Below, one piece after another: positions 18,715 to 41,881 of a stretch of DNA of 64,000 nucleotides; position 1 is the first letter of the stretch; each line of letters begins with the position of its first letter. Source of the DNA: Terriglobia bacterium. Lineage in GTDB: Bacteria > Acidobacteriota > Terriglobia > JAJPHL01 > JAPKYU01. The notes under the pieces were generated by a model. That model worked only from the letters and a program-made list of their open reading frames with translations. It had not been told where the DNA came from and made no database searches. The translations under genes were made by a program, and so were the position numbers. The stretch spans positions 493,075 to 557,074 of the forward strand of contig CBDCVK010000002.1 of NCBI GenBank assembly GCA_965223005.1. Direction: 5' to 3'.

Positions 18715-18992
18715 ACGTGATGCGGCTGCGCGTCAAAGTTCGCGCTGGCGCGCGACGCTCGAGCGTGGCGGGAAAACTGGGAGAGGAGTGGAAAATGGAG
18801 ATCGCCGCGCCGGCAGTGGACGGCAAAGCCAACCGCGCACTCGTCGAGTTTCTCGCTACCATGTGGCGCGTGCCGCGCTCAGCCGTCCAGATCGTCTCCG
18901 GGCACCGTTCGCCGCATAAAGTCGTGGAAGTGGAGGCAGCGGGAGGCGAAGAGTTACTGCTGTTCCAGAAAATCGAGAACAAGAAGACCTAG
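18711..18992 (+). CDS. DUF167/YggU family protein
   Basis: APAVDGKANRAL..FLA, IVSG..S..K; follows yggS. Confidence 0.85.
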   Translation: MNVMRLRVKVRAGARRSSVAGKLGEEWKMEIAAPAVDGKANRALVEFLATMWRVPRSAVQIVSGHRSPHKVVEVEAAGGEELLLFQKIENKKT

Positions 18993-18994
18993 TC

Positions 18995-20458
18995 GTGCTC
19001 TACATCATTGTCCTGGTCCTGATCGTAACCACCCTGCTGGTGGTCAGCCTGGCGCAGGCGCGCACGGTGAAGACGCAGGCTGATTTCACGGTGGCTGGGC
19101 GCAGTCTGGCGTGGCCGGTGTTGGTCTTCACGCTGCTGTCGTCCTGGATTGGGGCGGGTACGCTGTTTGCCGGCGGGGAAAACGCCTTTCGCAACGGGCT
19201 ATCTGCGCTATGGCTGCCGGCCGGTGGCTGGGCCGGGTTGCTGGTGATCGCGATGATTGCCGGACGCGCCCGCCGCTTCGCTCAATTCACCGTGCCGGAC
19301 TTGCTGGAGACGCGCTTCAATGTCACGGCGCGGGTCGCGGCCACGATCGCCATCCTGCTGGCTTACACGGCCATCACCAGTTACCAGTTCCGCGGCGGGG
19401 GCGAGGTGCTGCACCTGATCTTCCCCGAAGTACCAGCACGCACCGGAATGTATATCGTCGCCGGCTTCGTGATTCTGTTCACCGCGCTGGCCGGGATGTC
19501 CTCGGTAGCCTATCTGGACCTGGTGATCGGCCTGCTGGTGAGCATTTCGGCAGTGATTGCCCTCCCGTTGCTGCTGGGCCGGGTCGGCGGTTGGGAGGGC
19601 TTGCAGGCGGCTCTGCCTGCCGAGCACTTCACGCCCATGGGACGGCTGTCGTTGCGGAATGCTCTGGGGTTCTTCCTGCCCAGCATGCTGCTGTTGCTTG
19701 GCAACCAGAGCATGTACCAGAAGTTCTTCTCGGCTCGAAGCGAGCGCGACGCCCGGCTCTCAGTGGTGGGCTGGATCGTGGGCACGATCTTGCTGGAGAC
19801 GATCATCCTGCTGATTGCCGTGGTAGGCAGCGCCCTGTACCGCGACGTCAACCCGCACGACATCATCCCGGTCACGGTTCGGCGAGGCCTGCCGGCGCTG
19901 CTAGGGGCGGTCATGCTGGGCGGCATTTTCGCCAAGGTCATGGCGACGGCCAACAACTACCTGTTTTCTCCAGCCACCAACCTGGTACACGACATTTACC
20001 AGCGCTTTATCAACCCCAGCGCGGGACAGGCGCGGCTCATCTGGGTGTCGCGCGCAATGGTTCTCCTGCTGGGTCTTTTCGCTGTAGGCTTGCAGAGTTT
20101 CCTGCCCTCAATCCTGGCCATGGCCCTCTATGCGTACACTGTCTACAGCGCCGGCATTACTCCGGTGGTGATGGCTGTATTTTTCTGGAAGCGGGCCAAT
20201 GGGGCCGGCGCGGTCTCCTCCATAGCGGTTGGCACCGTCATCACGGTGGGCTGGAACCTGACGGCGCGGCTGGCCAACCCGGCCGCGGCCGCCGAGGGTT
20301 TACAGGCGGTAGCGCAGTTCGTGGCCGGCATCGAGGCGATCTATCCCGCGTTGCTCGGCTCGCTGCTTTGCCTGGTGCTGGTCAGCTTGGCGACGCCGCC
20401 CCCGCGCGAGGAGCAGTGGCGGCCGTTCTTCCAGGCCGCGGAGGGTGCGAGCGCATGA
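18995..20458 (+). CDS. sodium:solute symporter family transporter
   Basis: DF.VAGRSL, many TM helices, FTVPDLLETRF, AGM.SVAY.D. Confidence 0.92.
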   Translation: MLYIIVLVLIVTTLLVVSLAQARTVKTQADFTVAGRSLAWPVLVFTLLSSWIGAGTLFAGGENAFRNGLSALWLPAGGWAGLLVIAMIAGRARRFAQFTVPDLLETRFNVTARVAATIAILLAYTAITSYQFRGGGEVLHLIFPEVPARTGMYIVAGFVILFTALAGMSSVAYLDLVIGLLVSISAVIALPLLLGRVGGWEGLQAALPAEHFTPMGRLSLRNALGFFLPSMLLLLGNQSMYQKFFSARSERDARLSVVGWIVGTILLETIILLIAVVGSALYRDVNPHDIIPVTVRRGLPALLGAVMLGGIFAKVMATANNYLFSPATNLVHDIYQRFINPSAGQARLIWVSRAMVLLLGLFAVGLQSFLPSILAMALYAYTVYSAGITPVVMAVFFWKRANGAGAVSSIAVGTVITVGWNLTARLANPAAAAEGLQAVAQFVAGIEAIYPALLGSLLCLVLVSLATPPPREEQWRPFFQAAEGASA

Positions 20459-21651
20459 CTGATCTCAACCGGATGGCGCTCATCCAGCAGGCGCTGCGGG
20501 AGCGGAAACTGGACGGGTGGCTCTTCTACGACCACCATCACCGCGACCCGATCGCCTACCGGGTGCTGGGGCTGGATGAAAACGCTCTGGCTACCCGGCG
20601 CTGGTTCTACCTGGTGCCGTGCGAAGGTGAGCCTCTCAAGCTGGTTCACCGTATCGAGGCCGCACAACTGGACGCGCTGCCCGGACGCGCGCGGTCCTAC
20701 TCCTCCTGGCAGGAACTGGGCAGCGGCGTGGAGGAGATGGTGCGCGGGCGGCGCCGGGTGGCGATGCAGTATTCTCCCAACAACCTGCTGCCTTTGGTGG
20801 GGCTGGTGGATGCGGGCACGGTGGAGATGGTGCGCAGCTTCGGGGCCGAAGTGGTTTCCTCCGCGGACCTGGTGCAGATGTTCGAAGCCTGCTGGACTCC
20901 GGAAGCGCTGGAATCACACCTGGCGGCTGGACGCGCCATTGACGAGATTGTGCCGCTTGCTTTCGCCGAAATCGGCCGCCGCGTTCCCACCGACGAGTTC
21001 GCCATCCAGCAATATATTCTTGAGAAATTCCAGGCTGCCGGGCTGGTTACGGGCGAGGTGCCGATTGTGGCCGTGAACCAGAACAGCGGCAACCCGCACT
21101 ACGAGCCGCCCCGCGAGGGCTCGGCGACGATCCGCCGCGGCGATTTCGTGCTGCTCGATGTGTGGGGCAAGCAGAACCGGCCCGGGGCCGTCTATTACGA
21201 TGTCACCTGGATGGGGTATGTGGGCCGCAGCTCGGCAGACAACGAGCCGCCGGAAAAGTTTCTCCGGATTTTTGAGATCGTACGCGATGCGCGCGACCTG
21301 GGGGTGGAATTCGTCACTTCAGCGGTCCGACAGAAGCGCCCGGTACGCGGCTGGGAGGTGGACCAGGCCGTCCGGAGCTTCATTGCCGCGCGGGGCTACG
21401 GTGAGTATTTTCTCCACCGCACCGGCCACTCCCTGGGAGAGTCGGTGCACGGCAACGGTGCTAACCTCGACAATTTGGAGACGAAGGACGAACGCGAAAT
21501 CTTTCCGCGAACCTGTTTTTCTGTCGAGCCGGGCATCTACCTGCCTGAATTCGGCGTGCGTAGCGAGGTCAACGTGTACGTGGATGAGCAAGATGCCCGA
21601 GTGACTGGCGCCATCCAACGGGAAATTGTCCGGATTACGCCCGGGTCATGA
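20455..21651 (+). CDS. M24 family (Xaa-Pro) metallopeptidase
   Basis: PHY, LLDVWG...YYDVTW, HRTGHSLG..VH, FSVEPGIY, GVRSE; ATG overlaps symporter stop. Confidence 0.9.
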   Translation: MTDLNRMALIQQALRERKLDGWLFYDHHHRDPIAYRVLGLDENALATRRWFYLVPCEGEPLKLVHRIEAAQLDALPGRARSYSSWQELGSGVEEMVRGRRRVAMQYSPNNLLPLVGLVDAGTVEMVRSFGAEVVSSADLVQMFEACWTPEALESHLAAGRAIDEIVPLAFAEIGRRVPTDEFAIQQYILEKFQAAGLVTGEVPIVAVNQNSGNPHYEPPREGSATIRRGDFVLLDVWGKQNRPGAVYYDVTWMGYVGRSSADNEPPEKFLRIFEIVRDARDLGVEFVTSAVRQKRPVRGWEVDQAVRSFIAARGYGEYFLHRTGHSLGESVHGNGANLDNLETKDEREIFPRTCFSVEPGIYLPEFGVRSEVNVYVDEQDARVTGAIQREIVRITPGS

Positions 21652-27759: not shown

Positions 27760-27924
27760 GCCGGGTCATGGTGCTTCAACAGCGAGTGGCGCAAAGGTGA
27801 CCGAATCAGGACATCGCTAAAGTGTAACAGAAGGTATTGGACTCAACTCTGAGGCCGGCTTTAGAATGCCACAATTTAAGGGATTATAAGGAACGCTTGA
27901 CCGGCCAGGGGAGGATGCTCGTGC

Positions 27925-28198
27925 CTACTGAATCAAGTCGGACTCAGGGTCGTCGAAAACCACTTTCGATTCTGGAACGTTACGGAACTCCAGGAGGGCT
28001 GCTGCCAGAGATCCGTAAGAATCCTTCTCTGCTGAAGACAATTTTGGATGCGCAAGGGTCTTCAGTGAAGCTTTCTCGAAAATTGCAAAAAAAGCTTCAG
28101 CTGTCCGATCGATCGGTTCTAGTTCTTGAAGCGCTGTTACTGATCCGACAATGTTTCCGACAAATAAGACTAGAGTCCTTCAACTCAGACAATGGCAT
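27925..28198 (-). pseudogene. hypothetical protein with a +1 frameshift
   Basis: AAAGGAG RBS before ATG 28198; MPLSELKDSS then shifts to LFVGNIVGSVTALQELEPIDRTAEAFF...DLIQ*; span is 3n+1. Confidence 0.5.
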
Positions 28199-28208
28199 GA
28201 TCTCCTTT

Positions 28209-28526
28209 CTAGTTGATCCTTACAGGAGGCACTGATGAATCACCGAAAAAGTCAAGCAAAGAAAAATCACGGTTATTCTCCAGATAATCGGCGACGAGTT
28301 TCAGGTCGTCGGAAACGTAAGGCTCTTCGTGCGGAGCGTGGCGAAGATAATAAATCAAAGGATCTAAAAGAGGGTGCTCGTCGGAATCCTTCATTTTCTG
28401 TTCAATCGTCTGCAGCATGGACACAATGGTTAAGAGAAGCAGCTGAAGAGTTTGAGAGGATATCGGCGGCAGCGTTTGGTCGATCCGTCCAATCCAGTTA
28501 GCTGTCATCGCGCAGTCCTCCCTCAA
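28209..28526 (-). CDS. hypothetical protein (lower GC)
   Basis: ORF with GAGGGAGG upstream of an internal ATG; next gene's RBS directly follows the stop. Confidence 0.5.
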   Translation of the reverse strand: MREDCAMTANWIGRIDQTLPPISSQTLQLLLLTIVSMLQTIEQKMKDSDEHPLLDPLIYYLRHAPHEEPYVSDDLKLVADYLENNRDFSLLDFFGDSSVPPVRIN

Positions 28527-28546
28527 GAATTTTCCTTGCTTATCGG

Positions 28547-28640
28547 TTGACAGTGTAGGGCTAACGGTGGGAGAATGCTCTTGGACTTACCGTTAGACCC
28601 TCCTGTCAGACCAGTTCAACCGTTTGCACCGGTCGAACTG
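28547..28640. promoter_or_regulatory. TTGACA promoter-like element within an inverted repeat, followed by a second hairpin
   Basis: TTGACA-18-GAGAAT; arms tgacagtgtagggctaacggt / accgttagaccctcctgtca; then cagttcaaccg / cggtcgaactg. Confidence 0.5.
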
Positions 28641-28643
28641 CGC

Positions 28644-28982
28644 CTATCGTACCATCGCTGGGAGCGTGGTGAACACTTGGCCTGTGAATTTCAGACCGAT
28701 TGTGTAAACCGACCGGGGCGCCGATATCCGAGCAAGGCCGACATGATTCTCTGGGATCGTTCCCAACTCATTCAAAACGAAAGCCCTAGCGGAGTTTGCT
28801 GGAATGTTCACGGTCGTGTCCAAGACGCTACTCCCAGGAACATTCCGATACGACACCACCCGCACGGCAAGCGGCTGGTCTGAGGGATTTGCCAGCGCCA
28901 GAGCAAGCAGCGCACCATCTCGGTAATCGGCAAAGAAATACGCGGCTTTGTCGGGCGTGATCTCTTCGGCAGGTTCGACCAA
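28644..28982 (-). pseudogene. C-terminal fragment of a secreted beta-rich protein
   Basis: ALALANP...IGLKFTGQVFTTLP; no signal peptide or RBS, abuts an unrelated segment. Confidence 0.5.
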
Positions 28983-29037
28983 GGCTTCACCGACCGAAAG
29001 TCAAGAGGCCCAGCAATGAACGTGGTAGGATGGCAAT

Positions 29038-29295
29038 ATGAAACGGCACCGAAAGCTGATTCGCCTGATCCTGGAGTACGCCGAGCTGAATGCTACCGGT
29101 TCCGAGGCGTTGGACCCGCCCAAGATAGACGGTTTCACTCCGGCTGAGGTCAACTACCACATAGGTTTGTGCGACGAGGCTAAGTTCCTGCATGTCAATA
29201 GCACTAAAAGTCCAGATGACCCCCGCCAGTACACAATCGTAAACCTTACCTGGGCTGGACACGAGGTTCTTGACCCTAACGGGGTTGCCCCCTAA
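29038..29295 (+). CDS. DUF2513-like protein
   Basis: MKR...LIR.IL...E, V.YH..L..EA.F, LTW.GHE.LD. Confidence 0.8.
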   Translation: MKRHRKLIRLILEYAELNATGSEALDPPKIDGFTPAEVNYHIGLCDEAKFLHVNSTKSPDDPRQYTIVNLTWAGHEVLDPNGVAP

Positions 29296-29365
29296 GCGGT
29301 CCACTTCAGAGTCCAGGCGAGAATCCGTTTACGCACAAACCGATCCAGCACCATCCCGATACGGT

Positions 29366-30577
29366 TCAACGTTTCAATCTCTGTAACTCTTTAAGTGACC
29401 TGGAACCAATTCCCGGCGCCGAGGATCCTGATCTTGGTGTTATCCGATTTGTTCTTGTTCCAGTCATTTGGACACAAGGTGGCAAGCTGGTGGCGCCAGG
29501 TGGAACGCGGGGATACATGCAACCCGCGATAGAATCCGGCCCCGTGAGAGTGAACCGGAAGAAATGGTTATACGCTGCATACTCGATCAGCATGGCATAG
29601 CTTTGCCGCTCCTCTTGCCACAAAGCCAGAACTTCTGCTCCTGACAGGGCAGTTCCAGTGATGGCCAGCGTTCCGTCCGGGCCGCTCAAGAATCGGTCCA
29701 GTGAGAAGAGTTCGCCATACCTTGCTCCCACGGCTCTCACATCCCATGTTCCGGCGATCTGTTCAAGCCGTTGCCGTTCCGAGAGGGTTGGCATTGGCTG
29801 TGGCGGTGTAGGTGTCGGTGGTTCTGGGTTCCCAATCTGAGACCCGGGCATAGGCCGCGCCAAGCGGGAAAATTGAAGATTGCCATCGCAGATAGAGAAT
29901 CCAACGGCGCTCACGTTCCCGTTGATGCGAACCGTTCCAAATTCTCCTCTGGCCTCAGGGAACCGCTCGCTCATCATGAAGTTATCATGCAGGTGGAAGA
30001 GGTTTCCGATGTATTTCAAATCCCCGAGTCTTTCGCCGGCCGTGTTGAACGCCTCCATGGTGGCTGCGCCGGGGGCGTCACTGGCGATCACGATTTGGGA
30101 ATCGCAGCCCTCGAAGTTGAGGAAGGGGACGATGACTCCTGATTTCGCTCCAGACAGGGGTTGGGCTTGAGTGATAACGTACCAAGTCGTATTGTCTGGA
30201 GAGTGCTGTACGTGGAAGACTTCTATGGCAACGCAGCCGTCGTCGTTTTCAACTATGGCGTATCCGCTTCGCTTCTCCCCCACATTTCCAAAGTAGCCAG
30301 ACTGCATTTCCAGCGCGGGAAGTTCCGCGTCGCCAAAACCCCTCCATTCTTTGCCATCGGCGGAAAGATATAGCGTGTCGCCTGAGGAATCATAAAAGTT
30401 GACGGTGTAGGAAGAAGTGGTCGAGCAGAGGTTGAAAATGTGGAAGGCGGTGCTCCATCCACCACCTTGGGAGATGTGCGGAATGAAGCTGGTTTTAGAA
30501 GAAGCATGCGGCGCCAGGATTGACGCCGCCAGAAACACCAATGCCAACAGCAGGCTTCTTTGCAGGCGTGAAAGCAT
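29366..30577 (-). CDS. secreted hypothetical protein with Pro-rich linker
   Basis: AAGGAG RBS, signal peptide, PHI..GGGWST.F, PEPPTPTPPQP linker. Confidence 0.75.
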   Translation of the reverse strand: MLSRLQRSLLLALVFLAASILAPHASSKTSFIPHISQGGGWSTAFHIFNLCSTTSSYTVNFYDSSGDTLYLSADGKEWRGFGDAELPALEMQSGYFGNVGEKRSGYAIVENDDGCVAIEVFHVQHSPDNTTWYVITQAQPLSGAKSGVIVPFLNFEGCDSQIVIASDAPGAATMEAFNTAGERLGDLKYIGNLFHLHDNFMMSERFPEARGEFGTVRINGNVSAVGFSICDGNLQFSRLARPMPGSQIGNPEPPTPTPPQPMPTLSERQRLEQIAGTWDVRAVGARYGELFSLDRFLSGPDGTLAITGTALSGAEVLALWQEERQSYAMLIEYAAYNHFFRFTLTGPDSIAGCMYPRVPPGATSLPPCVQMTGTRTNRITPRSGSSAPGIGSRSLKELQRLKR

Positions 30578-30646
30578 AGAATCTCCTTAGGCGTGGTTCC
30601 GGTCAGCCATTAGGGGCCACCGGGCTAATCGCCAACGATCCTAAGT

Positions 30647-31684
30647 TGGGCTTGATCCGGTTTCGTGGACACGTTCCGAAAGGCGGATACGATGTCCAGA
30701 ATGGGATCAACGAAGGCAGGGAGACGGGCGCGACGACAGTTCAGTGAGGAGTTCCGGATCGGAGCCGTTCGGCTGGTCTTGGATGCGGGCAAGACGGTCG
30801 GCGCCGTCGCGCGCGAGTTGGATCTGACGCCATCGGCCCTGGCGCAGTGGGTGAAGCAGGCACGTGCCGATCGGACGAAGGGCAAGACGGGGCTGACGAC
30901 CGAGGAGCGCGCCGAGCTGGCGCGCCTACGCAAAGACAATCGCGAGCTGCGGATGGAGCGCGACGTCCTAAAAAAAGCCACGGCCTTCTTCGCGAAGGAC
31001 CACCTGTGAAGTTCGCGTGGATCCAGGCGGAGAAGGCCACCTACCCGCTCACGAAGCTCTGCCGCTGGCTCGACGTCACGCGGAGTGGCTTTTACGCCTG
31101 GCGCGCGCGTCCAGAATCAACGCATGCACGCGAGGATCGCCGGCTGACCGTGCTGGTGCGGGCGTCGTTTGAGGCGAGCAAGCAGCGCTACGGCAGCCCG
31201 CGCGTTCACGAGGATCTCCTTGAGCAGGAGGAGCACGTCAGCCGCAAACGGGTCGTGCGCCTGATGCAGAAAGACGGGCTGAAGGCGCGGCGGCGCAAGC
31301 GGTACAAGCTCACCACGATGAGTGATCACGATCAACCGGTGGCGGCCAATCTCCTGGACCGACACTTTGAGGCGGCCGCGCCGAATCAACGGTGGGTCGG
31401 CGACACGACGGAGTTCGTCATCGGCGGCAGCGGGAAGCTCTACCTTGCGGCGATCTTGGATCTGTTCTCCCGGTTCATCGTGGGATGGGCCGTGAGCGCC
31501 GTCAACGACCGCCATCTGACCATCAAGGCGCTCCAGATGGCGCTGAAGCGCCGCTGCCCCGACGCCGGTCTGCTGCACCATTCCGACCAGGGCGGCACCT
31601 ATGCGAGCGAGGACTACCAAGACGTGCTCGACACACACGGTATCATCTGTAGCATGAGCCGCCGGGGCAATTGCTACGACAATG
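30647..31684 (+). mobile_element. IS3 family insertion sequence, 3'-truncated (orfA 30692-31009, orfB via -1 frameshift)
   Basis: TG...TGGACAC left end; orfA RRQFSEEFR..AV, VARELDL; A7G slippery site 30970-30977; orfB YGSPR, WVGDTT, HHSDQG, SMSRRGNCYDNA then cut before the catalytic Glu. Confidence 0.92.
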
Positions 31685-31834
31685 CACCGCATCCGGCAAG
31701 CGTGGTCCAAATCCGACAACGGAACTCCACTGTCGGGACCGGTAGAAATTGACGAGACCTATGTGGGCGGGAGGCGACGCAACATGCCAAGGTCGAAGCG
31801 CAAGGAGCTTGCAGGTCGTGGCCCGGTCGGAAAG
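31682..31834 (+). mobile_element. internal fragment of an IS1595-family transposase
   Basis: HRIRQAW...LSGPVEIDETYVGG...GRGPVGK. Confidence 0.8.
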
Positions 31835-34168
31835 GTCGGGGGAGCTACCTGGATCAGCTCCAACGGCTGGGATTCCGAGCGCAACAAGCCCCAATTCCGT
31901 CTTGGAACCACGCCTCGGATCTTGCTGCATCCGGACGACCCCCAAACTATTTTCCTGGCGCGCAGCTCGGGACTGTGGCGCTCCACGGACGGCGGCGATA
32001 GCTGGTTCCGGCTGGTGGGCGGTGTGGCCACCGACGTCGCCATCCATCCCGACAACCCCAGTCGCATGTTCCTCGCTCTGGGGCGGAACCTGGGAAGCGC
32101 GGGGAATGGGGTCTACCGCTCCGACGACGGCGGCAACACCTGGGGGCGCGTGGCGGGCCTGCCCTTTGGCGAGGAGATCGGCCGGATCAGCCTGGCTGTA
32201 GCACCCAGCAATGGGGCCGTGGTTTACGCGGTGCTGGTCCGTTCCCAGAACCAGCAGCTTCGCGGAGTTTACCGCAGCGTGGACGGGGGGGACTCCTGGA
32301 ATGGGCTGCCTGCGCCACTCTCTCTGTTCGACTCCAACGGTCGCGGCCACGGGTTTTTCGACAATTTTGTCGCTGTGGACCCGCGCGACGCCAACGTGGC
32401 GTATCTGGGCGGCGTGGAGCTTTGGAAAACCATCAACGGCGGGCTGGTCTGGGTCCTGCTGAGCCTGGTGGATCAGCGCATCATCCACGAAGATCAATTC
32501 TCGATTGCCTTCAAACCGGCCGACCCTGATACCGTCTACATCGGCAACGACGGAGGCATCTATAAGACCACCGACGGCGGCGCCACTTGGGCCAGCCTGA
32601 ACAGCGGCTTGCCCATCACCCAGATCAACAGTGTCGCGGTGCATCCGCAAGACCCGCAGATCGCGCTGGCCGGTACCCAGGATCAGGGACTGATCCGCTT
32701 CGCAGGAAGCAGCACTTGGGAGCAGTTGTTCCGCGGCGATGCTGGAGCGGTCATGTTCGACCCGGTCAATCCCAACATCATCCTGACCACAAAGAACCTG
32801 ATGCGGCCACGGCGGTCAGTGGACGGCGGAGCTAGTTTTTCGGACATCAGCGCTGGCATTGATCCTCGCGACCGGGGGGCGTTTTATCCTCCCGTGGTCG
32901 CCTCGCCAGAGAGTCCCGGATTCCTCTACTTCGGAACGCACCGGGTGTGGAATTCCATCGACGGGGGTGCGACCTGGGTGCCGATCAGTCCCGACCTGAC
33001 CGACGGCGGCGCGCTGACCGCGCTGGCGGTCTCTCCTGGTTCCTCCTCCACAATTTGGGCGGGCAGCAGCGATGGGCGGGTCCATGTGTCGACCGGCCTG
33101 GGCTTTTGGCACAGCATCACCGGTCTCCCTAGGCGTTGGGTTACCTCCATCCTGCCTGATCCGCGCAACCCTGGTGTCGTCTACCTCACCGTTTCTGGCT
33201 TCGGCACCGGACACATCTTCAAGATCACCGGAACGGGAAATACCTTGACGGACATCAGCGGCAACCTGCCAAATGCGCCAGCCAACGCGGTGGCGATCGA
33301 CGAGCGCGGCCCGCTTTACGTGGCCACCGACGTGGGCGTATTTCGCAGCGAAGATGGCACCTCGTGGGCTTCGTTCAACGCCGGTTTGCCCAACGCCTTT
33401 GTGACGTCGCTGGCCCTGGACACCAGCTCTGGCACCCTGACGGCCGGCACCTTCGGGCGCAGTGCCTACCGTGGCCAACTGCAGGCCCCCGAGAGCGGGC
33501 CGAACGTGCTGGCGCAAGGTGTGGTCAACTCCGCCACCTATCAGTCGCTGTTGGCGCCGGGCGGCATCGCTTCGCTGTTTGGCACGCAACTGGCGGCGAC
33601 CACCGCGCACAGTTCCGAGCAGCCCCTGCCGACCTCGTTGGAAGGTGTCAGCGTCACGGTCAATGGGGAGCCGGCACCGCTGTTCGTGGTGAGCCCGCTC
33701 CAGATCAATTTCCAGGTCCCGTTTAAGATTGTCGACTCGCAGGCATTGGTTCAGGTAAGCACTACGGAAGGGACGGCGGCCGGTCGGGCTCCGGTACTGT
33801 CGACGAGTCCGGGAATCTTCGACGGCACGATAGCCCATGGCGCCACGGGCACTCCGGTGGATGGAAGCAACCCTGCGGCTCGAGGTGAAATCCTGGTGCT
33901 GTTTGCCACCGGTCTGGGAGCCACTCAGCCGGAGGTGGCCAGCGGCTCCCCCGCACCATCCGATCCCCTCGCCAGAACAGCGATTCCAGTCACTGCCCGC
34001 TTCGGAGACCAACAGGCGCCTGTCCACTTCGCCGGCTTGGCACCGGGCTTTGTCGGCCTCTATCAGGTGAATATTCAGGTTCCGGAAGGTGTGAGCGGCG
34101 ACGTGCCGCTAACCATTCAGGCAGGTGGGCGAAGCAGCAACGCAGTGATCGTTTCCATCCGGCCATGA
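31835..34168 (+). pseudogene. 5'-truncated BNR/Asp-box beta-propeller protein with TIGR03437-like C-terminal domain
   Basis: many S.DGG.SW/TW repeats; GVVNSA.Y...APG.IASLFG...QINFQVP...FAGLAPGFVGLYQVN; native N-terminus replaced by a transposase fragment. Confidence 0.8.
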
Positions 34169-34232
34169 CAAGTTGCGGAGGTTATGTTCTTGCGGCGAAT
34201 CCTGGGGTCTGATACAGTGCGGCTCTAACTCC

Positions 34233-34857
34233 ATGCTTTGGCGGTCAAGCAGCGGAAAGGCAGCGCTGCGGGTCTTGTGTGCGGTGGCGTTTCTGCTGAG
34301 CGCGCCGGGAGCCACGCTGGCTGCCGACCTAGTGGCGGCGCGTGTCCTCAGCGTGAGCGGGCGGGTGTCGCTGGAACGTAAGCCGGATCTATGGGCGGTT
34401 CGCACCGATCAGTTCATCCAACCGGGTGAGGTGATTGTCTCCGGTCCGGACGGCCACGCGGTGCTGGAGTTGGAGGACGGGAGCAATGGCGGTCGAGGAA
34501 GGTCTGCTGGCGGTAGCCCATAAGTTGCTCCCCAGAGGGCGCGAAGTACTGGTGAAGACGGGTGAAGTGCTCGTCGTGCGGCCCACCGAGCCACTCACTT
34601 CCGTTTCGGTCAACAAGGGGCGGCTGGCGGTGCGCATCTTGAGAGTGGCTGTGGAGGCCGCTCTGCGGACAGGGCGCTTAGGCGGAGGCGGTCGCGGGTC
34701 TGCACCCAGCGGCGGTGGCGGTGGTGGCGGCAGCAGCGGGGGCGGGGACTTGGGCCAGGCGCCTCCCCCACCTCCCGATGTGCCCGATGATGACAGCGGC
34801 CCGGGAGCAGGGCAGCCTTTCCAAGCTCCTCCGCCAAAACCAAAAATCAACAAGTAG
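34233..34857 (+). pseudogene. FecR-domain-like secreted protein with internal deletion/frameshift
   Basis: signal peptide, VSG.V, GE.IVSGPDG.A.LELEDGS, then jumps frame at about 34485 to VEEG...V; Gly/Pro tail. Confidence 0.65.
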
Positions 34858-34904: not shown

Positions 34905-35477
34905 TCAGCCGCTCCCAGTGACCGGGAGCGGGCAGTAGGCGTCTTCGGAGAAGCCCTGGGACTCGATGGCCAGGGCATGGTCGAAGCGAGCCCTAAAGTT
35001 CTCCCAGGCGATGGCCGCAGTCAGCTCCACTAGCTGGGCCTCGTTGAACTCGCGGCTCAGTGCGGCGAACAGCGCATCGGGAACCTCAACCGGCGTTTTC
35101 GTCATCGCCACGGCGTATTCGATCACCAGTTTTTCCAGCGGGGAAAATGTGGGGCTGTCTTTGTAGACCGCCAAGTCGCGGAGCTGCTCCTCGGTGATCC
35201 CGGCCGCCCTGCCCACGGCAGAGCCGATGTCAATTCAAAAGGGACAGCCGACCAGCGTCGCCGCCTTGACTTGGGCCAGCGATTTCAACCGCTCCTCCAC
35301 CAGGCGGGAGCGTTCCAGGGCATACTCAAATGCGCCATAGCCATTGAGCAACCAGGTGTGGCGCGCGTACACCGTCAGCGGCTCAGGCACTTTGCCGACC
35401 CGCCGACGCGCGAACCAGTAGGCCAGGCGGGCCAGCAAGCCGGCTTTATCTTCCGCGATTCCGTCAATCCTTGCCAT
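34905..35477 (-). CDS. AhpD/carboxymuconolactone decarboxylase family protein, probable selenoprotein (CxxU)
   Basis: two ORFs in the same frame joined by TGA 35237-35235: LVGCPF*IDIGSAVG; C-terminal LVELTAAIAWENFRARF. Confidence 0.88.
35206..35224 (-). promoter_or_regulatory. candidate bacterial SECIS hairpin
   Basis: GCUCUGCC-GUG-GGCAGGGC stem-loop; loop starts with G, 18 nt after UGA. Confidence 0.7.
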
Positions 35478-35555
35478 TTTCTACCAGGCCATTTTCTACC
35501 AGGGAAGTTGCTTAAACTCCCTTTTATGAAATCGATTTAGGAAATCGATTGAACG

Positions 35556-36885
35556 TCAAATGGTAATAGCTAATTTGTCGCGATCTCTTTCTAGAAGAGT
35601 AAAGCGAATCCTCCTATTTGATCGCCGGTTGATGTCGCGCATCTTCTCTTCGACATCCTTCATGTGGTTCCTTCGGGACGACTTGGAGTTTGGGTTGGAC
35701 GAGGAGGAACTGAACCAGAATCGGCAGCGGCTGCCTGCCTTAGGGTGCGAGCTACGCTCACTGTTCGATCCAATGCGGGACTTTGCGATCGCCTCCAAAA
35801 TCTCAAGATCAGGATTGTGGTGAGCACCATCACCACAGAATACATAGTCGTCCGCGATAACTTTGCGATAAAACTGTTCATCGGTATTATGCTCGGAGCC
35901 ATGGTGGGGAATCTTGAGAAGATTTACGTGCAGAGAGTCGTCCTCATGCCTGCCGATGCGCCTGAAGTGCTTCAGGCCAGCCAGGATGTCTTCCCCATGA
36001 CCGTCACCTGTTAGTAGAAGCGTCTTGTCGTTTTCCTCAACCAGGAACATGAGAGAAGCGAGATTCTGGGTTGTGACAGCGGTGCGCGCGCCCAGTGCAT
36101 TTCCCATTAAAGTACGAGCAGCTTGTAACCCTTCCAGGCTCGACGAGGCCAAAGCCTCTTCATCTCTGCGATGGCGCCTTCGAATCCTATTAAGGTGCTG
36201 CTCAGTGGAATGCTTCTGCAGCCATGCGTTCCACCTCGTCCCGGAGCTTCTGGAGGTCGGCCTCGGACGGACCAAGAATCTGAAAGGCCATACCGCCTAA
36301 CGACAAAGTGCTGCGAGTCCTCGGTCGAAGCATGACCTTGTTGTTTGCCGGCGCGTTTACAGGTATTTTCAACTGCTTGCCACCGACTCGCTTGGTGACC
36401 TCGATGGCATCGGCCATACTTGACGCCAATTCCTGGTACCCATCTGCCAACTCGCCTAGCTTACCGCTAGAAAATCCTCGGAGGACACGTGCGGTCGCCG
36501 CCGAGTTGGCTGCGAATCCGGCCACTGTTCGCGCCAAGTTGCTCGTGAAAGGCATTGTGCCAGATGCCCAGGATCTCCGGCGGGCGCTCAACCTTTGGCT
36601 TGCGGTTCCGCCGTCAGGACTCGGATTCGTTCGGAAGTGTTCATGGACCCGCCACTCGACGAAATCCTCAAGCATCTGGAGAATACCGAAGACGTGATCG
36701 CGATCGACATGTGAAATATAGACTACATCTAGCGGAAGTTTGTCGCGTCGCATTCGTCTCAAGTGTAGGAGCTACGTGGCGTGTATAGGAATCGCGCATG
36801 CCGCCGTCGATTAGCATGTGCTTGCCGTCCGCCCCTTCGAGCAGAAGGCAATCACCCTTATCCGATTGAAAAACTCTAATTTCAC
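35556..36885 (-). pseudogene. MBL-fold (ComEC/Avs1a-like) metallo-hydrolase, multiple frameshifts
   Basis: reassembled across frames: KGDCLLL, LIDGG, SHVDRDH, IWHNAF, NLASLMF, LLTGDG, KIPHHGS, DGAHHNPD; GGAGGTG RBS, GTG 36885. Confidence 0.8.
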
Positions 36886-38960
36886 GGCTCCACCTCCTGC
36901 CGTTTCAGAGCCTCGCTCGCTTGCCGCACACACTCTGCGGGATCAACCTTCCGAAACCAGCGTCGTTCGTCCAGTCGAAATCATCGTTCGGCAGTGGCTG
37001 GGCGGTTCGCTTGATGATTCCGGCGATCTGTGCCGCGGTTAGTCGCGGTTCGGCAGCCAACATAAGGGCGATCACCCCGGCTACAAAGGGGCTGGCCATG
37101 CTGGTGCCCGTCATGCTAATCCATTCCTCCCCCGGATCACCGAAGCCGTTAGCGGCTATGATGTCTGTACCCGGTGCGGCGACCTCTGGTTTAGTTCTGC
37201 CGTCTCGGGTCGGTCCTTGACTGCTGGTGACGTTGATTGTTTCGGTCTGTTCGTCGAGGTTGGCAACCGACACGATCCGCTGGCCGCAGGCTAGTGAGCT
37301 GACGGAAGAGTTGTCAACGTTCGAGGATCCGGCGAAGAACGATGGGAAGCGCCAAAGACTGGTGTCGCCGATTTGCCCTGGATCGTCGCGTTCAATCCAG
37401 CCATGAAACCGGCCATCTCGAATCTCATCCCCGTGCAATCGCACAGTCCAGACTCCTGCTTTTACTCCTATAACCTCGTCCGGCGTGTCGACTTCGAGGA
37501 ATGGACTCAAGTAAATCGACATGTAGTTTGAGCCGTTGGCAGGATAATACAGTTCACTATAGATGCTAACCAGGCTCCCGTCATCGAGAATATGGTTCTC
37601 TAGAAACTCTTGTGGCTTGATCGGCCCAATCCAGTCCCCGCCGGGCGGCCTGATCGATATGGATATACGGTCTTGCGCTTCGTACCAAATCTCGAGTTCG
37701 TTCTCAGAAATGTCTTCCAGGCCGTCACCCACCACGAGCCATCGGATATCGTGATCCAGGCCCGCTGCCTGAATCCGCCCGCTGGTATGAATGCGGCCCA
37801 TGATGAAGCCCAAATCCCCCTCTTCCATTGGACCCTCTTGACCTGAGTTGCCAGCGGCTACGCAAATACTGCGTCCAGGAACCGCGAGCGCGGAGTCGGC
37901 CCAGCGACTCAACGCGCTGCTGGCGTCGTGCGCATGCGAATTCGTCCCGAGGCTGATGTTGATCGAAGCCGGAACGCCCAACTCATCCGCGATGCGGAAC
38001 AGATAGTCGATGGCGTGTGCAAGCCTCGTGGAATCGTAGAACGATCTTCTACGATCATTGTCCTCAGGTGGTAGATCGATTAAGACCGCCGCAAGAATCG
38101 CTCTGGGACAGACCCCGCTGTTCCCACCGGCAATGCTTGCTACGTGGGTCCCGTGCGACCCGGCAAAACTCTGCGACTGAGGTTCGAGATCAACCGGAGA
38201 AACGCCGATGTTAGCCGTCAAAGCGGCGTTCAAATGGTTCGCAGTCAGCTCGGAGCCATAGTCGTAGGGGGCGTTTTCATTGGCTTTTGGCGTCGAGCGG
38301 TGGGTTCCTCCTTGATCCCATATGCGAAAGAACCGCGTATGCCCTTGTTGGTCGAGAAAATCCGGACGGCTGAAGTCGAAACCATCTACATCGATCACAC
38401 CAATTAGAACAGGCTTCCCGTTGTCTAGGAGCCCGCCTCGGTGCAAATTGCGGGTCTCCGCAAGAGCCTGGACAGTGATTTCCGAGTGGGAATTCCCGGC
38501 GACTCCACTAACAAAGGAGGTCGCGAATCTGGGTCGGCGTAGAGGATCGCCCTGACTAACAAAACTGACATCACTACGTCCTGCGATCTCTCCGATTTCT
38601 GCCAGGGGCACCTGCGCTGTAACAATGTTGCCTAATCGTCCTGTTTCAAGACCAAGTTTCGCCGGGGATTTGATGCGGCCATCAAACTCGACAAAGACGT
38701 TTACCCTTGTCTGGCTCTCCACCTCATCCAGGGATTTTGGTCGCTTCTTCCGCCTTTTCTGCGTGAGCAGGATTTCTGGGGCCGCCTGTACGAGTGGTGT
38801 TTCATCCAGCAATTTGACCTGATCGGTAGCCAGGCAAGCGCACTGTTGCGACCGAGCCAAATTTAACGCGCCCGCTGCTGTTGCGCATCATGCGAAGCTT
38901 AGGATGTATCACCTGATCATGCTCGGTGTGAGAGACCGACCGTTTGGCTAAGATTTTCAT
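36882..38960 (-). CDS. S8 (subtilisin-like) serine peptidase, frameshifts near both ends
   Basis: triad IGVIDVDG, HGTHVASIAGG, GTSMASP; AAGNSG; KPEVAAPG; AGGAGG RBS before ATG 38960. Confidence 0.9.
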
Positions 38961-39066
38961 TTGAGCCTCCTGACTGGGCCACATCTTACATGAGGTATAT
39001 CCCTTAGATTACGACCTACAATCTCCGGCTTTGTATAGTGAGCAATCTAAGAATTTGCAACGTTTA

Positions 39067-39729
39067 TTAGAAACCTTCTTGGATCAGACGCTTAACGGTG
39101 AGAGTTTCAGCGGGGCGCTCAACGTTTGCCAGCAGGCGTTCCAGGTGGCGGGCCAGCAGATCGCACTCCAGGTTAAGCTGGTCACCCGGCTGGCAGGCGT
39201 GCAGGTTGGTGTGCTTGTGCGTGAGGGGGACAACAGCCACCCCTAACGCGTCGCCTTCGAGCGAGGCTACCGTGAGGCTGATGCCATTCAGGGCCACAGA
39301 GCCCTTCCAGGCCACGTAGCGGAGCAGCTCCGCCGACACACGCGCTTCTAACCAGTAGTTGCCTTCAGCGTCCAGAGATCGGTAGCAGAGCACTTCGGCC
39401 ACGCCGTCCACGTGTCCCTGGACCAGATGCCCGCCCAGAGGCGAGTTTAGCGTCAGCGGGCGCTCTAGATTCACCAGTGAACCGGGCACTAGCGCGCCCA
39501 GGTTGGTGCGGGCTACGGTTTCCGGCGAAAGGTCGCAGCGGAACGACTTGCTGTCAGCGGCAAGCACGGTGAGGCAGACGCCATTGACAGCAATGCTGTC
39601 GGAGGTATGCAATTCTGATGCCAGCGGCGCGCGGACCACGAGCCGACGCCCGGCCGCTTCCAAAACAGGGCCAGCCGGGGCGGTCAACTCCGCCACCTGT
39701 CCGCCCGCTTCAATGATCCCTGTAAACAT
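39067..39729 (-). CDS. ribE: riboflavin synthase alpha chain
   Basis: MFTGII, SIAVNGVCLTV, VNLER, GGHLVQGHVDG, KGSVALNGISLTV. Confidence 0.96.
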   Translation of the reverse strand: MFTGIIEAGGQVAELTAPAGPVLEAAGRRLVVRAPLASELHTSDSIAVNGVCLTVLAADSKSFRCDLSPETVARTNLGALVPGSLVNLERPLTLNSPLGGHLVQGHVDGVAEVLCYRSLDAEGNYWLEARVSAELLRYVAWKGSVALNGISLTVASLEGDALGVAVVPLTHKHTNLHACQPGDQLNLECDLLARHLERLLANVERPAETLTVKRLIQEGF

Positions 39730-39731
39730 TG

Positions 39732-40910
39732 TCAATCCTCGTCGAAGATCGAGCGCAGGTAGCCCTCTACCAGGAAATCTTGGCCGATGCGGCGCAGCTC
39801 AGTGATACGAACGGGCAGGGCGTCCCGCAGCGAGCGGAGGCCACGGCCGCCAAAGAGTGAAACGGCATCCTGGCCGCCCAGCAGCTTTGGCGCGTAGAAG
39901 AGCATCACCTTGTCCGCAACGCCGCTTTCCAAGGCAGTGGCGTTCAGGGTTGCGCCGGCTTCAAGCAACACGCTGGTGACCTCGCGTTGACGCAACGCAG
40001 CCAGCACGGCTGCCCAGGCCGGCCGTGCGCTGCTTCCGCTTTCGCCGAGCCGAAGGATTTCCACCCCGCGCCGCTCGAGCGCCCGCGCGCGAGCTTGGGG
40101 CGGATCGGTTGCGCAGACGACCAGCACATCGTCGCGCGCCGATTGAGCCAGCTGGCTTTCGGGTGGCAGGCGCAGCGCCGAGTCCAGCACCACCCGCAGC
40201 AGTGGGCGGCGCCGGTGCCGGCCGCTGCGGTCGGTCAGCAGCGGGTCGTCGGCCAGCACCGTTCCCACGCCGGTCACCAGCGCATCGTGGCGGTGGCGCA
40301 GCTGCTGTACGCAGGCGCGCGCTTCCCCGCCGGTGATCCAGCCGGGCCGCTTGTCGCCGGCTTCGGGAGCGGCGATCCGACCGTCCAGCGTCATCGCCCC
40401 CTTCAGGGTGACGAATACGCCGCCTCGGATGTATCGAGCGAAGTGTTCATTTAGGCCCTGGCACAGCTCGGCGAGCACGGGCTCCTCGACCGCGATGCCG
40501 GCCGCCCGCAACCGGGCGAATCCTTTTCCGCACACCTGCGGGTTGGGGTCGCGCATGCCCGCAACTACGCGCGCCACGCCCGCCTGGATCAGCGCTTCGG
40601 TGCAGGCTCCGGTGCGTCCCTGGTGGCAGCAGGGCTCCAGATTCACGTAGAGCGTGGAGCCACGTGCCGCGTCGCCAGCCTGCTTCAGAGCCAGCACCTC
40701 GGCGTGGCGCAGGCCGTCGTAAGTGTAGCTGCCTTCGCCGCAGACGCGCCCGTCGCGCACTACGACGGCGCCCACCATCGGATTGGGGCTCGTCAACCCC
40801 TCGCAGGCCTCGGCTAGCTCCAGAGCCCGTCGGAGAAACGCTAGGTTAGTCGGAGAAGCAGCAGCGGGGGGGACGGTGGCTGAGAACGCAGGCTGCGATG
40901 GAAAACCCAT
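39732..40910 (-). CDS. ribD: riboflavin biosynthesis deaminase/reductase
   Basis: PNPMVGAV, HAE, LEPCCH.GRT..C, TLDGRIA, GTVLADDP.LT. Confidence 0.96.
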   Translation of the reverse strand: MGFPSQPAFSATVPPAAASPTNLAFLRRALELAEACEGLTSPNPMVGAVVVRDGRVCGEGSYTYDGLRHAEVLALKQAGDAARGSTLYVNLEPCCHQGRTGACTEALIQAGVARVVAGMRDPNPQVCGKGFARLRAAGIAVEEPVLAELCQGLNEHFARYIRGGVFVTLKGAMTLDGRIAAPEAGDKRPGWITGGEARACVQQLRHRHDALVTGVGTVLADDPLLTDRSGRHRRRPLLRVVLDSALRLPPESQLAQSARDDVLVVCATDPPQARARALERRGVEILRLGESGSSARPAWAAVLAALRQREVTSVLLEAGATLNATALESGVADKVMLFYAPKLLGGQDAVSLFGGRGLRSLRDALPVRITELRRIGQDFLVEGYLRSIFDED

Positions 40911-41881
40911 CAGGACGCCTTTTCCGAAAGCTTGTCCTGGAACAAGGACTCAATGAACTGCTCGGGATCGAAGGGTATCAGGTCGTCTTTTTTCTCGCCG
41001 ATGCCCACGTAGTGAATGGGCAGCTTCAATTCGCGGGCGATGGCCACGGCCACGCCGCCTTTGGCCGTACCGTCCAGCTTGGCCAGCACCAAGCCGGTGA
41101 CTCCGGCCGAGTGTGTGAACTGGCGTGCCTGCTGGAGGCCATTCTGGCCGGTGGTGGCGTCCAGAACCAGCAACACTTCGTGCGGCGCCCCAGGGATGAC
41201 GCGGGCGGCGGTGCGGCGCATCTTTTCCAGCTCTGCCATCAGGTTACTTTTGGTGTGCAGCCTGCCAGCGGTATCTACCAACACGCAGTCCAAGCCACGA
41301 GCCCGGGCTGCCTGAAGCGCGTCGAAGAGCACGGCACTGGGATCGGCGCCTGGCTTTTGCTTCACCAGGTCACAACCGGTGCGCTCAGCCCAGATTTCCA
41401 GTTGCTCGATGGCGGCCGCGCGGAACGTGTCGGCCGCGCACAGAAGCACCCGTTTCTGGTCGGACCGAAGCTGGTGGGCCAGCTTGCCAATCGTGGTTGT
41501 CTTGCCGGTCCCGTTCACTCCCACGATCAGAACCACGGTCGGCGGAGGTGGATGGCGGACGCCGTCGACGGCCGTGCGTTTCAGGATCGCCAGCAGTTGC
41601 TGCTTAACCAGTTCCCTCACTTGCGCGGCGTCGGCAACCTGGTTGCGGTCCACCTGCTCCCGAACCACTTCCAGGACCTCGCCCGTGGTCGTCACACCCA
41701 GGTCGGCTCCGATCAAGGCGGCTTCGAGTTGCTCCAGCAGCTCGGGATCAATTTCCGTGTGGCTACGAAATACCTCGTCGAGCCGGCCAGTCAGGTTTTC
41801 CTTGGTGGAGCTGACGGCCTGCTGTAGGCGCTCGAAGACACCGGCAGGTGGCTGTGGCCCGAACAGCGTCTGGATTGGCAT
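40910..41881 (-). CDS. ftsY: signal recognition particle receptor FtsY
   Basis: GVNGTGKTTTIGKLA, DTFRAAA, DTAGRLH, KLDGTAKGG. Confidence 0.97.
   Translation of the reverse strand: MPIQTLFGPQPPAGVFERLQQAVSSTKENLTGRLDEVFRSHTEIDPELLEQLEAALIGADLGVTTTGEVLEVVREQVDRNQVADAAQVRELVKQQLLAILKRTAVDGVRHPPPPTVVLIVGVNGTGKTTTIGKLAHQLRSDQKRVLLCAADTFRAAAIEQLEIWAERTGCDLVKQKPGADPSAVLFDALQAARARGLDCVLVDTAGRLHTKSNLMAELEKMRRTAARVIPGAPHEVLLVLDATTGQNGLQQARQFTHSAGVTGLVLAKLDGTAKGGVAVAIARELKLPIHYVGIGEKKDDLIPFDPEQFIESLFQDKLSEKAS

Follow-up and report, generated by a model that had tools for sequence, protein, structure and literature searches.

What might a subtilase and a metallo-β-lactamase (MBL)-fold hydrolase do together when their genes overlap and recur as a pair? 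The question is raised by a 64,000-nt stretch of DNA from a Terriglobia bacterium (assembly GCA_965223005.1, contig CBDCVK010000002.1, positions 493,075 to 557,074), referred to here as the window. A preliminary description of its sequence had singled out a lower-GC block of two genes downstream of ribE and had suggested that it encodes a protease-activated defence or toxin module. The block is present as described: guanine plus cytosine (GC) content, measured in 500-nt windows, is 0.49–0.59 in 35250-39249 vs 0.62–0.72 on both flanks, and the lower-GC block (38960-35556, minus strand) consists of exactly two genes, an S8 subtilase followed by an MBL-fold hydrolase (Table 1). The reading that we favour, and consider somewhat probable by analogy with published relatives, is that the S8 protease would cleave the MBL and so unlock a DNase, without a separate sensor.

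A conserved two-gene unit

Related loci were sought in one genome per species (185,579 species genomes), which gave 389 candidate stretches, 332 of them encoding an S8 relative; the pair statistics rest on the best 80 of these 332 loci. An MBL homologue lies directly downstream of the S8 gene and on the same strand in 80/80. The S8 stop overlaps the MBL start in 68/80 loci (by 4 nt in 53, by 1 nt in 13 and by 11 nt in 2), the remaining 12/80 having a gap of 1–44 nt, and the window itself has the GTGA overlap that had been reported for it. Co-divergence and active-site conservation were assessed on 67 loci, 13/80 having been dropped for a partial gene. Across these, S8 and MBL distances were strongly correlated (Mantel r = 0.87), with 0/2000 permutations reaching a value as high. 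No conserved third gene was found around the 80 loci, where 986 neighbour open reading frames (ORFs) fell into 835 clusters and the largest cluster was represented in 10/80 loci at scattered positions; the earlier statement that a separate sensor ATPase is lacking agrees with this. When longer proteins in which the S8 is fused to something else were sought, one turned up at E <= 1e-20, an amidase fusion, and by the method's own caveat this scarcity is weak evidence. We conclude that S8 and MBL form a two-gene unit that is strictly conserved and coupled in translation.

The pair also has an accessory, mobile character, as seen in the lower-GC insert of the window, in the mixing of phyla on the S8 tree and in its presence on rhizobial plasmids. 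On the tree, the phylum labels need 20 changes vs a minimum of 9, and strongly supported pairs join Solibacteraceae with Ilumatobacteraceae and Armatimonadota with Planctomycetaceae, although some of these labels may be binning errors, as they come from the titles of metagenome-assembled genomes. Among plasmid records, 26 had a match (at least 80% query coverage in 14; 13 predicted conjugative). Intact pairs are found on rhizobial plasmids, including pRle248d of R. leguminosarum bv. viciae 248, where S8 and MBL share 4 nt; on this plasmid, as from annotation pipelines, both genes have received generic names only. As intact copies exist in cultured rhizobia, plasmids included, the idea of a protease-unlocked nuclease is directly testable. 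The pair is also common in soil phyla that defence catalogues cover poorly (332/389 stretches).

Direct repeats bounding the island were not found in the window, where just short pairs of 12–19 nt were seen, which are often due to chance at such size. In several Acidobacteriota, the pair lies between yebC and ruvC (L015, L052 and L066; also L042 and L062), two genes that are usually adjacent in bacteria. These loci would be clean examples of an insertion of just the two genes and could help to delimit the cassette.

The subtilase and the hydrolase

The S8 gene has a main ORF of 651 aa (36905-38860) with a Pfam Peptidase_S8 match (E 5e-28). Its first 31 residues (MKILAKRS..., 38960-38865) sit in another frame than this ORF, and so do its last 20 (C-terminus ...DPAECVRQASEALKRQEVEP, ending RQEVEP), which run up to the TGA stop at 36884-36882. 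Read through in a frameshift-aware alignment, it is identical at 690/692 residues to P0246, an intact 692-aa protein from another assembly. The Asp/His/Ser triad that had been called intact is present, and D190, H269, N371 and S620 are kept in 67/67 related loci. The reported absence of a signal peptide also held in a crude hydropathy test, which is not a dedicated signal-peptide predictor: the top Kyte-Doolittle 11-residue mean within the first 60 residues is 0.92, and only 2/119 family members reach 2.0. Because its N-terminus is hydrophilic, the protein is likely to be cytoplasmic, and a reading of it as a secreted protease was dropped on hydropathy. Of 7997 proteins scored in the family search, 2397 passed E <= 1e-3, and those listed (120) are 53–97% identical and 601–744 aa long. 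The N-terminal 133 residues, searched with phmmer against 1.84 billion representatives, gave 18 weak matches (best 2e-10, 145–1700 aa), which are uninformative on other architectures.

The structure model of the subtilase is of moderate quality (predicted local distance difference test (pLDDT) score 64) and suggests four parts. These are an N-terminal stretch of 80 residues, poorly predicted and carrying the conserved motif KLRM..N.S..VN..R..QC; a prodomain-like beta-alpha-beta unit (residues 85–136); the catalytic domain; and a beta-rich insertion at ~390–524, between the catalytic Asn and Ser. The top fold matches were CspC, CspA and CspB (E 1e-28 to 1e-26 over ~630 columns, with ~20% identity), the next match outside the Csp proteins being at 2e-10. 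The sequence profile likewise ranked Csp first among solved relatives (E 7e-33 to 5e-26), and its alignment extends back to residue 31 of one Csp chain, which presumably falls inside the Csp prodomain. The Csp proteins are subtilases of the cell interior that keep their prodomain and carry an inserted beta domain, and this is where the likeness lies. The substrate that CspB activates is pro-SleC, the zymogen of a cortex hydrolase; here, in contrast, the partner is an MBL nuclease candidate, the hosts by their record titles (Acidobacteriota, rhizobia and the like) are not known to form spores, and the NCBIfam scores are far below their cut-offs (CspBA 120 bits vs 1250; CspC 102 vs 675). By these scores, the S8 protein falls outside the Csp germination proteases, its resemblance to them being confined to fold and architecture.

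The preliminary description had also pointed to IetAS, which is said to be a defence pair of an ATPase and an S8 protease. The common element is an S8 protease within a candidate defence unit of two genes. However, an ATPase partner is not conserved here, and among PADLOC models, which we take to include one for IetS, the S8 protein matched the 'subtilase' model PDLC03014 alone (E 6e-20, at a threshold of E <= 0.1). On these two grounds, the link to IetAS is not supported.

In the MBL, the HxDxDH, GD, HHGS and H.NP motifs were all located, and D12, D27, H59, D61, D63, H64, D294, H327 and H328 are kept in 67/67 related loci. Breaks aside, the window protein is essentially identical to 442-aa members of the same 90% cluster (0–1 residue differences). 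Intact relatives matched the PADLOC models for LmuA (MBL type) at 1.5e-45 to 1.8e-48, Avs1a at 1e-26 to 1e-30 and the defence-associated reverse transcriptase (DRT)-associated MBL at 1e-24 to 1e-28; for one that is 93% identical, the values were 1.5e-45 (LmuA), 4.5e-29 (Avs1a) and 3.5e-24 (RTasMBL). The fragments of the window MBL match the same models, and the link from MBL hydrolases to defence systems that had been drawn for this locus is supported, at about 1e-45 for LmuA and 1e-29 for Avs1a. By sequence, the protein belongs with the defence-associated MBL nucleases. Its C-terminal piece retrieved 528 longer proteins; those listed (120) have lengths of 432–471 aa. No homologues of the MBL were found in phage records at E <= 1e-10. 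In a comparison with a library of viral folds, two unnamed entries matched at 1e-7.

Among solved structures, the closest relatives of the MBL are ComEC nuclease domains, both by sequence (4.6e-10 and 2.8e-9) and by fold (9ic4, E 4e-9). It is not a ComEC/Rec2 protein: TIGR00361 scored 19.3 bits vs a cut-off of 190, a membrane competence domain is missing, and the top 19-residue hydropathy mean in the family is 1.64, the MBL being a soluble 442-aa protein. The model of an intact 442-aa relative is good overall (mean pLDDT 81, predicted template modelling score 0.84), with low confidence only at residues ~111–150 and ~221–270. These appear to be the long insertions that had been noted from the sequence. 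The ComEC MBL domain has 266 residues, and the two insertions with their surrounding helices make up the ~175 extra ones.

The fold matches go further, to phosphorylcholine esterase (2.5e-7), arylsulfatase and cyclic-nucleotide phosphodiesterases, and Pfam gives only a generic Lactamase_B match at the N-terminus. Together with the partial conservation of the supposed insertions, this would suit a reading that we consider quite improbable, in which the two proteins are co-expressed hydrolases in a shared processing or catabolic task and the MBL acts on a non-DNA phosphoester or a small molecule, with no zymogen step. However, the best sequence and fold matches are those to ComEC nuclease domains and defence MBL models, both proteins are cytoplasmic by hydrophobicity, and interacting partners typically show strict pairing of this kind, with overlapping stop and start in many phyla. 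Nor did the neighbour scans reveal conserved genes for a transporter, a precursor peptide or a pathway near the pair. A related idea, in which the S8 protein is the leader peptidase of a pathway for ribosomally synthesized and post-translationally modified peptides or another secondary metabolite, was dropped because precursor or modification genes are not conserved in the neighbourhood.

Table 1. Coordinates (window numbering) of the pair, its motifs and insertions, its frame breaks and the genes upstream.
Feature	Position	Strand	Remarks
S8 subtilase gene	36882-38960	-	692 aa read through
MBL-fold hydrolase gene, predicted latent DNase	35556-36885	-	442 aa read through, six frame pieces
GTGA overlap	36882-36885	-	MBL GTG start 36885-36883 overlapping S8 TGA stop 36884-36882
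S8 catalytic Asp motif VIDVDGFDF	38372-38398	-
S8 His motif SHGTHVAS	38135-38158	-
S8 oxyanion Asn motif AAGNSGQ	37838-37858	-
S8 Ser motif GTSMASPF	37085-37108	-
MBL motif SHVDRDH	36694-36714	-	HxDxDH, metal-binding
MBL insertion 1, candidate gating loop	~36436-36555	-	residues ~111-150, block pLDDT 49-59; position approximate owing to frame breaks
MBL insertion 2, candidate gating loop	~36077-36225	-	residues ~221-270, block pLDDT 42-56; position approximate owing to frame breaks
MBL motif LLTGDGH	35997-36017	-
MBL motif IPHHGSEHN	35886-35912	-
MBL motif FCGDGAHHNP	35811-35840	-
S8 break 1	38861-38867	-	one extra base in run AAATTT; read against intact P0246 residues
S8 break 2	36945-36946	-	one base missing
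MBL break 1	36874	-	one base missing; VKLE and VFQSDKGDC share base 36874
MBL break 2	36760-36770	-	one extra base
MBL break 3	36614	-	one base missing
MBL break 4	36502	-	one extra base
MBL break 5	36234	-	one extra base
ribE	39067-39735	-	directly upstream of lower-GC block
ribD	39732-40910	-	upstream of block, same strand
ftsY	40910-41881	-	upstream of block, same strand

Proposed mechanism and the question of defence

Work from 2025 provides the frame for these observations. According to the accessible text of Tuck et al. (Science 2025, PMC12799240), the trypsin-paired MBL nucleases of Hachiman, AVAST type 1, Lamassu and DRT systems are proenzymes with two gating insertions; HamA cuts PflHamM after I118 and I218, and the cut HamM then degrades plasmid DNA. 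The same text reports that the caspase-paired CanC behaves like HamM and that E. coli is protected from T4 by the canu clade. Evans et al. (bioRxiv 2025.11.14.688446, PMC12642450), in the text available to us, divide protease-associated MBLs into three clades, with trypsin-like, caspase-like and S8 subtilisin-like partners, and describe VcMBL of the first clade as becoming a Zn-dependent double-stranded DNA nuclease once cut at I133 and I232. Their experiments, as given there, are confined to this first clade, and the S8 clade is left unnamed. The preliminary description had not recognised the combination as a named system, and this stands as far as the name goes; S8-associated MBLs as such had already been set apart as a clade. 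The readable supplementary tables of Evans et al. have 0 rows with 'subtilisin' or 'clade 3', and the supplementary PDF and figures may hold more. As far as these texts show, the S8–MBL pair is a new case of a recently described kind, from a branch mentioned in one preprint; proteolytic unlocking of the DNase was described for trypsin- and caspase-paired MBLs hung on large sensors, the S8 branch being only mentioned in print.

The pair shares with the protease-activated MBL pronucleases an MBL homologous to HamM, Avs1a and LmuA-H with intact metal-binding residues, and an adjacent, co-oriented and co-diverging protease with intact catalytic residues. No infection sensor encoded with the protease is conserved across the 80 loci, and the search for longer forms gave no sensor fused to it. 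With the trypsin-paired members (HamM-HamAB, Avs1a, LmuA-H, VcMBL-Avs2/AtMBL-Avs4), as described in the accessible texts, it has in common the homologous MBL, the two insertions and the co-diverging neighbour, but its protease is of the S8 family and unfused to a STAND, Hachiman, Lamassu or reverse transcriptase sensor. The protease gene also comes first here, whereas the nuclease lies upstream in the trypsin class (Tuck et al.), and the MBL is longer than the LmuA model (413 aligned residues vs 345 positions). Membership of two named systems was considered and rejected. For AVAST type 1, NCBIfam Avs1a gave 59.9, 27.8 and 21.4 bits on the three window fragments vs a cut-off of 420 (values that apply to fragments only), the protease is S8, and one nSTAND neighbour was seen in 74 loci. 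For Lamassu, the LmuA MBL model is matched, but LmuB- or LmuC-like genes are not conserved and none was found among 260 neighbours (Pfam) or 140 (PADLOC).

Canu (CanABC) is similar in layout, with a non-trypsin protease upstream of a gated MBL nuclease, and the system tested needs both catalytic activities for defence, according to the accessible text. It differs in its caspase-like cysteine protease, its Ig-like or tetratricopeptide repeat (TPR) partners, its third gene and its location in defence islands, whereas the S8–MBL pair has two genes only and lies mostly outside such islands. The pair fits the description of the S8 clade ('Clade 3') of Evans et al. (PMC12642450), an MBL hydrolase beside an S8 protease, although this is a match of description and not a placement on their tree. 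That clade is reported, in the part of the paper seen, to have 'distinct sensor associations', whereas the subfamily described here has no conserved sensor gene and, on the weak evidence given above, no longer fused forms.

From these comparisons we propose the following mechanism. The MBL would be a ComEC-type metal-dependent DNase made as a proenzyme, which would be inactive because its two inserted segments block the active site; the insertions occur at places in the chain comparable to the published cut sites I118/I218 and I133/I232. The translationally coupled upstream gene would supply the protease, a Csp-like subtilase of the cytoplasm that carries a prodomain-like unit of its own and the beta-rich insertion. 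Upon a cue, the subtilase would become active and cut both inserted segments of the MBL, and the freed DNase would degrade cellular and invading DNA, leading to growth arrest or cell death. Cleavage by the protease, DNase activity and cell death are what we infer from the published sister clades. The most likely role would be abortive defence against phage or other invading DNA; this role and the nature of the trigger are more conjectural.

The switch would have to lie in the S8 protein itself, since no other gene is conserved, and could be the N-terminal peptide, the prodomain or the inserted domain. In the simplest arrangement, a conjecture, the prodomain would keep the enzyme shut until the cue displaces it, as in the Csp proteases. 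A more specific form of this idea, which we hold tentatively and rather doubt, is that the S8 protein is the sensor: a Csp-like zymogen kept shut by its prodomain and the conserved N-terminal peptide, which would respond to a cue of infection or damage, fire without an NTPase, a helicase or a nucleotide signal and unlock the pronuclease. If so, it would be the smallest self-contained protease-to-nuclease death circuit known, carried as a bare two-gene cassette across at least 10 phyla that inserts between housekeeping genes and not in defence islands, and it may be costly enough to be broken repeatedly within a single natural population. Because there is no separate sensor, the subfamily would offer a minimal system for how a protease alone decides to fire.

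Several results weigh against a sensorless, protease-unlocked DNase acting in defence. The loci point to no sensor for the S8 protein, which leaves the switch a conjecture; the S8 model is of the moderate quality given above, and the window copy has seven frame breaks. Insertion 1 of the MBL is in part strongly conserved (IWHNAFH.Q and MLAA), and because of this it may be structural and not a disposable gate. A full-text literature search returned no experiment on an S8-paired MBL and no other S8–MBL paper. Enrichment in defence islands had been set out as a check on the proposed function, and here the outcome was unfavourable. The Pfam neighbour scan covered two genes on either side in 74 loci (260 proteins), L053 having no neighbour ORF of at least 100 aa and L076–L080 (20 proteins) being left out. 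By our own classification, a defence- or mobility-type domain occurs within two genes in 9/74 loci: a resolvase, an nSTAND1-WD40, a HEPN, an AbiEii with HEPN, a transposase, an S24 peptidase, two patatins and a TPR-S. With PADLOC at E <= 1e-12, 5/140 neighbours (40 loci) matched, the AbiEii alone being specific (1/140), and the 36 ORFs around the window copy gave no match other than a generic P-loop in FtsY. Most copies sit between housekeeping genes, and the rarity of defence genes near the pair counts against a defence role.

We judge an anti-phage role of the pair to be about as likely as not. A second view of its purpose keeps the same chemistry, an S8 protease unlocking a DNase, and assigns it to a selfish addiction, stress-suicide or regulated DNA-degradation module that answers a cue from the cell, for example damage, starvation or misfolded protein. 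We think this unlikely, but not negligibly so. Solo insertion between housekeeping genes in most loci, few defence neighbours, the lack of a sensor gene and the wide horizontal spread, plasmids included, would all fit, as would the repeated breakage in one natural population described below, which suggests a cost. The Discussion of Evans et al. (PMC12642450), in the text available, raises stress responses for another protease-effector module. However, all MBL relatives reported as tested in the accessible texts act in phage defence, and the pair has no conserved neighbour of the antitoxin or regulator type.

The window copy and neighbouring features

The copy in the window carries, by our reading, 7 one-base breaks in 3.4 kb, 2 in S8 and 5 in the MBL (4 insertions and 3 deletions), which, as real mutations, would leave it without function. 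Such breakage singles out the two genes of the pair. In 90% clusters of near-identical copies, the full-length S8 protein (692 aa) is found in 2/15 listed members (19 in the cluster) and the full-length MBL (442 aa) in 4/10. Control clusters, drawn like these from size-matched contigs, are mostly full length: ribD 14/14, ftsY 10/11, a GTPase 7/9, a membrane glycosyltransferase 11/11 (506–513 aa) and another protein in 11/15 listed members. Genome-wide sequencing error was rejected as the cause of the breaks because ribD is full length in 14/14 members, and the ribD, ftsY and several other proteins of the window occur letter for letter in the protein collection. The breaks in the S8 and MBL clusters vary: a frameshift at residue 413 is common to two members, and others are at 630, or at 400 in the MBL. 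In four members (P0001, P0245, P0247 and P0262), the final part does not occur in the island DNA, suggesting deletions or insertions. A codon-usage scan for frame switches in the window was too noisy to help, giving no switch in one run and, in another, flags at ordinary gene boundaries.

It is conceivable, though we would not favour it, that the copy is a dead relic whose seven breaks are real mutations in a pair that this lineage is losing; this would concern the state of the copy and not the function of the family. The specificity of the breakage speaks for it, and split S8 or MBL genes also occur in 6/80 other loci. Against it, the seven 1-nt indels come with at most 2/692 differences from the intact S8 allele and 0–1 in the MBL, and the corrected frames have no in-frame stop; with so few residue changes and no such stop, the pattern is not the one expected of neutral decay. 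The break sites also vary from one assembly to another although the proteins are nearly identical, a pattern that random errors in the consensus would give; such errors could arise if the island is present in a minority of cells and thinly covered. If the breaks are not real, they would be errors of the consensus in an island that is variable across the population. In both cases, instability or heterogeneity of this locus is unusually high in the species, and the breakage, with its junctions to unrelated sequence, would reflect either a costly module that is lost time and again or a strain-variable island that is hard to assemble. It may thus be a field record of the cost of a latent nuclease, or a warning about consensus quality in strain-variable islands.

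Elsewhere, the pair on the chromosome of Mesorhizobium sp. AaZ16 (L044; NZ_CP171729.1, titled a complete genome) has both S8 and MBL split, with a DDE transposase two genes downstream, and is another decayed copy. Near the window pair, two ORFs of 116 and 140 aa that overlap in different frames (34173-34857, plus strand) have no family match; if they are one gene with a frame break, which they might be, the error-prone or decaying zone would extend that far. Promoter-like sites (2 vs 1.9) and terminator-like sites (4 vs 3.7) were at the level of shuffled sequence, and Rfam and tRNA scans of the 64-kb window gave no match. An exact tandem 15-nt repeat, GCCATTTTCTACCAG x2 (35473-35502), overlaps the ATG (35475-35477) of a CMD/AhpD-family gene, and a 13-nt tandem repeat lies at 35523-35548, just past the MBL stop. 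These repeats could be regulatory sites or an insertion scar.

The CMD gene (34905-35477, minus strand) has an in-frame TGA at 35235-35237, in the context G-C-P-F-[TGA]-I-D, where a CxxC-type motif has its second Cys. If TGA is taken as U, the Pfam CMD match (PF02627; 30.9 bits, E 2.7e-7) extends across this codon. Shuffled sequences gave hairpins as good as the one downstream (z -0.38), and Rfam gave no match. The gene is either a candidate selenoprotein or carries a nonsense mutation. Farther from the pair, an IS3-type transposase (rve and HTH_21) lies at 30847-31752 (plus strand), and at 31682-31840 (plus strand) a BNR/sortilin-repeat ORF begins with a fragment of an IS1595-type transposase, joined to it in frame. 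The region 30000-30750 is lower in GC as well, and five ORFs at 27837-30577 have no Pfam or PADLOC matches. Finally, an 846-aa ORF at 19111-21651 (plus strand) is a spurious 5' extension, and the apparent real genes of the region 18920-21651 (plus strand) are a 512-aa membrane-transporter-like ORF at 18920-20458 and an M24 peptidase from ~20470.

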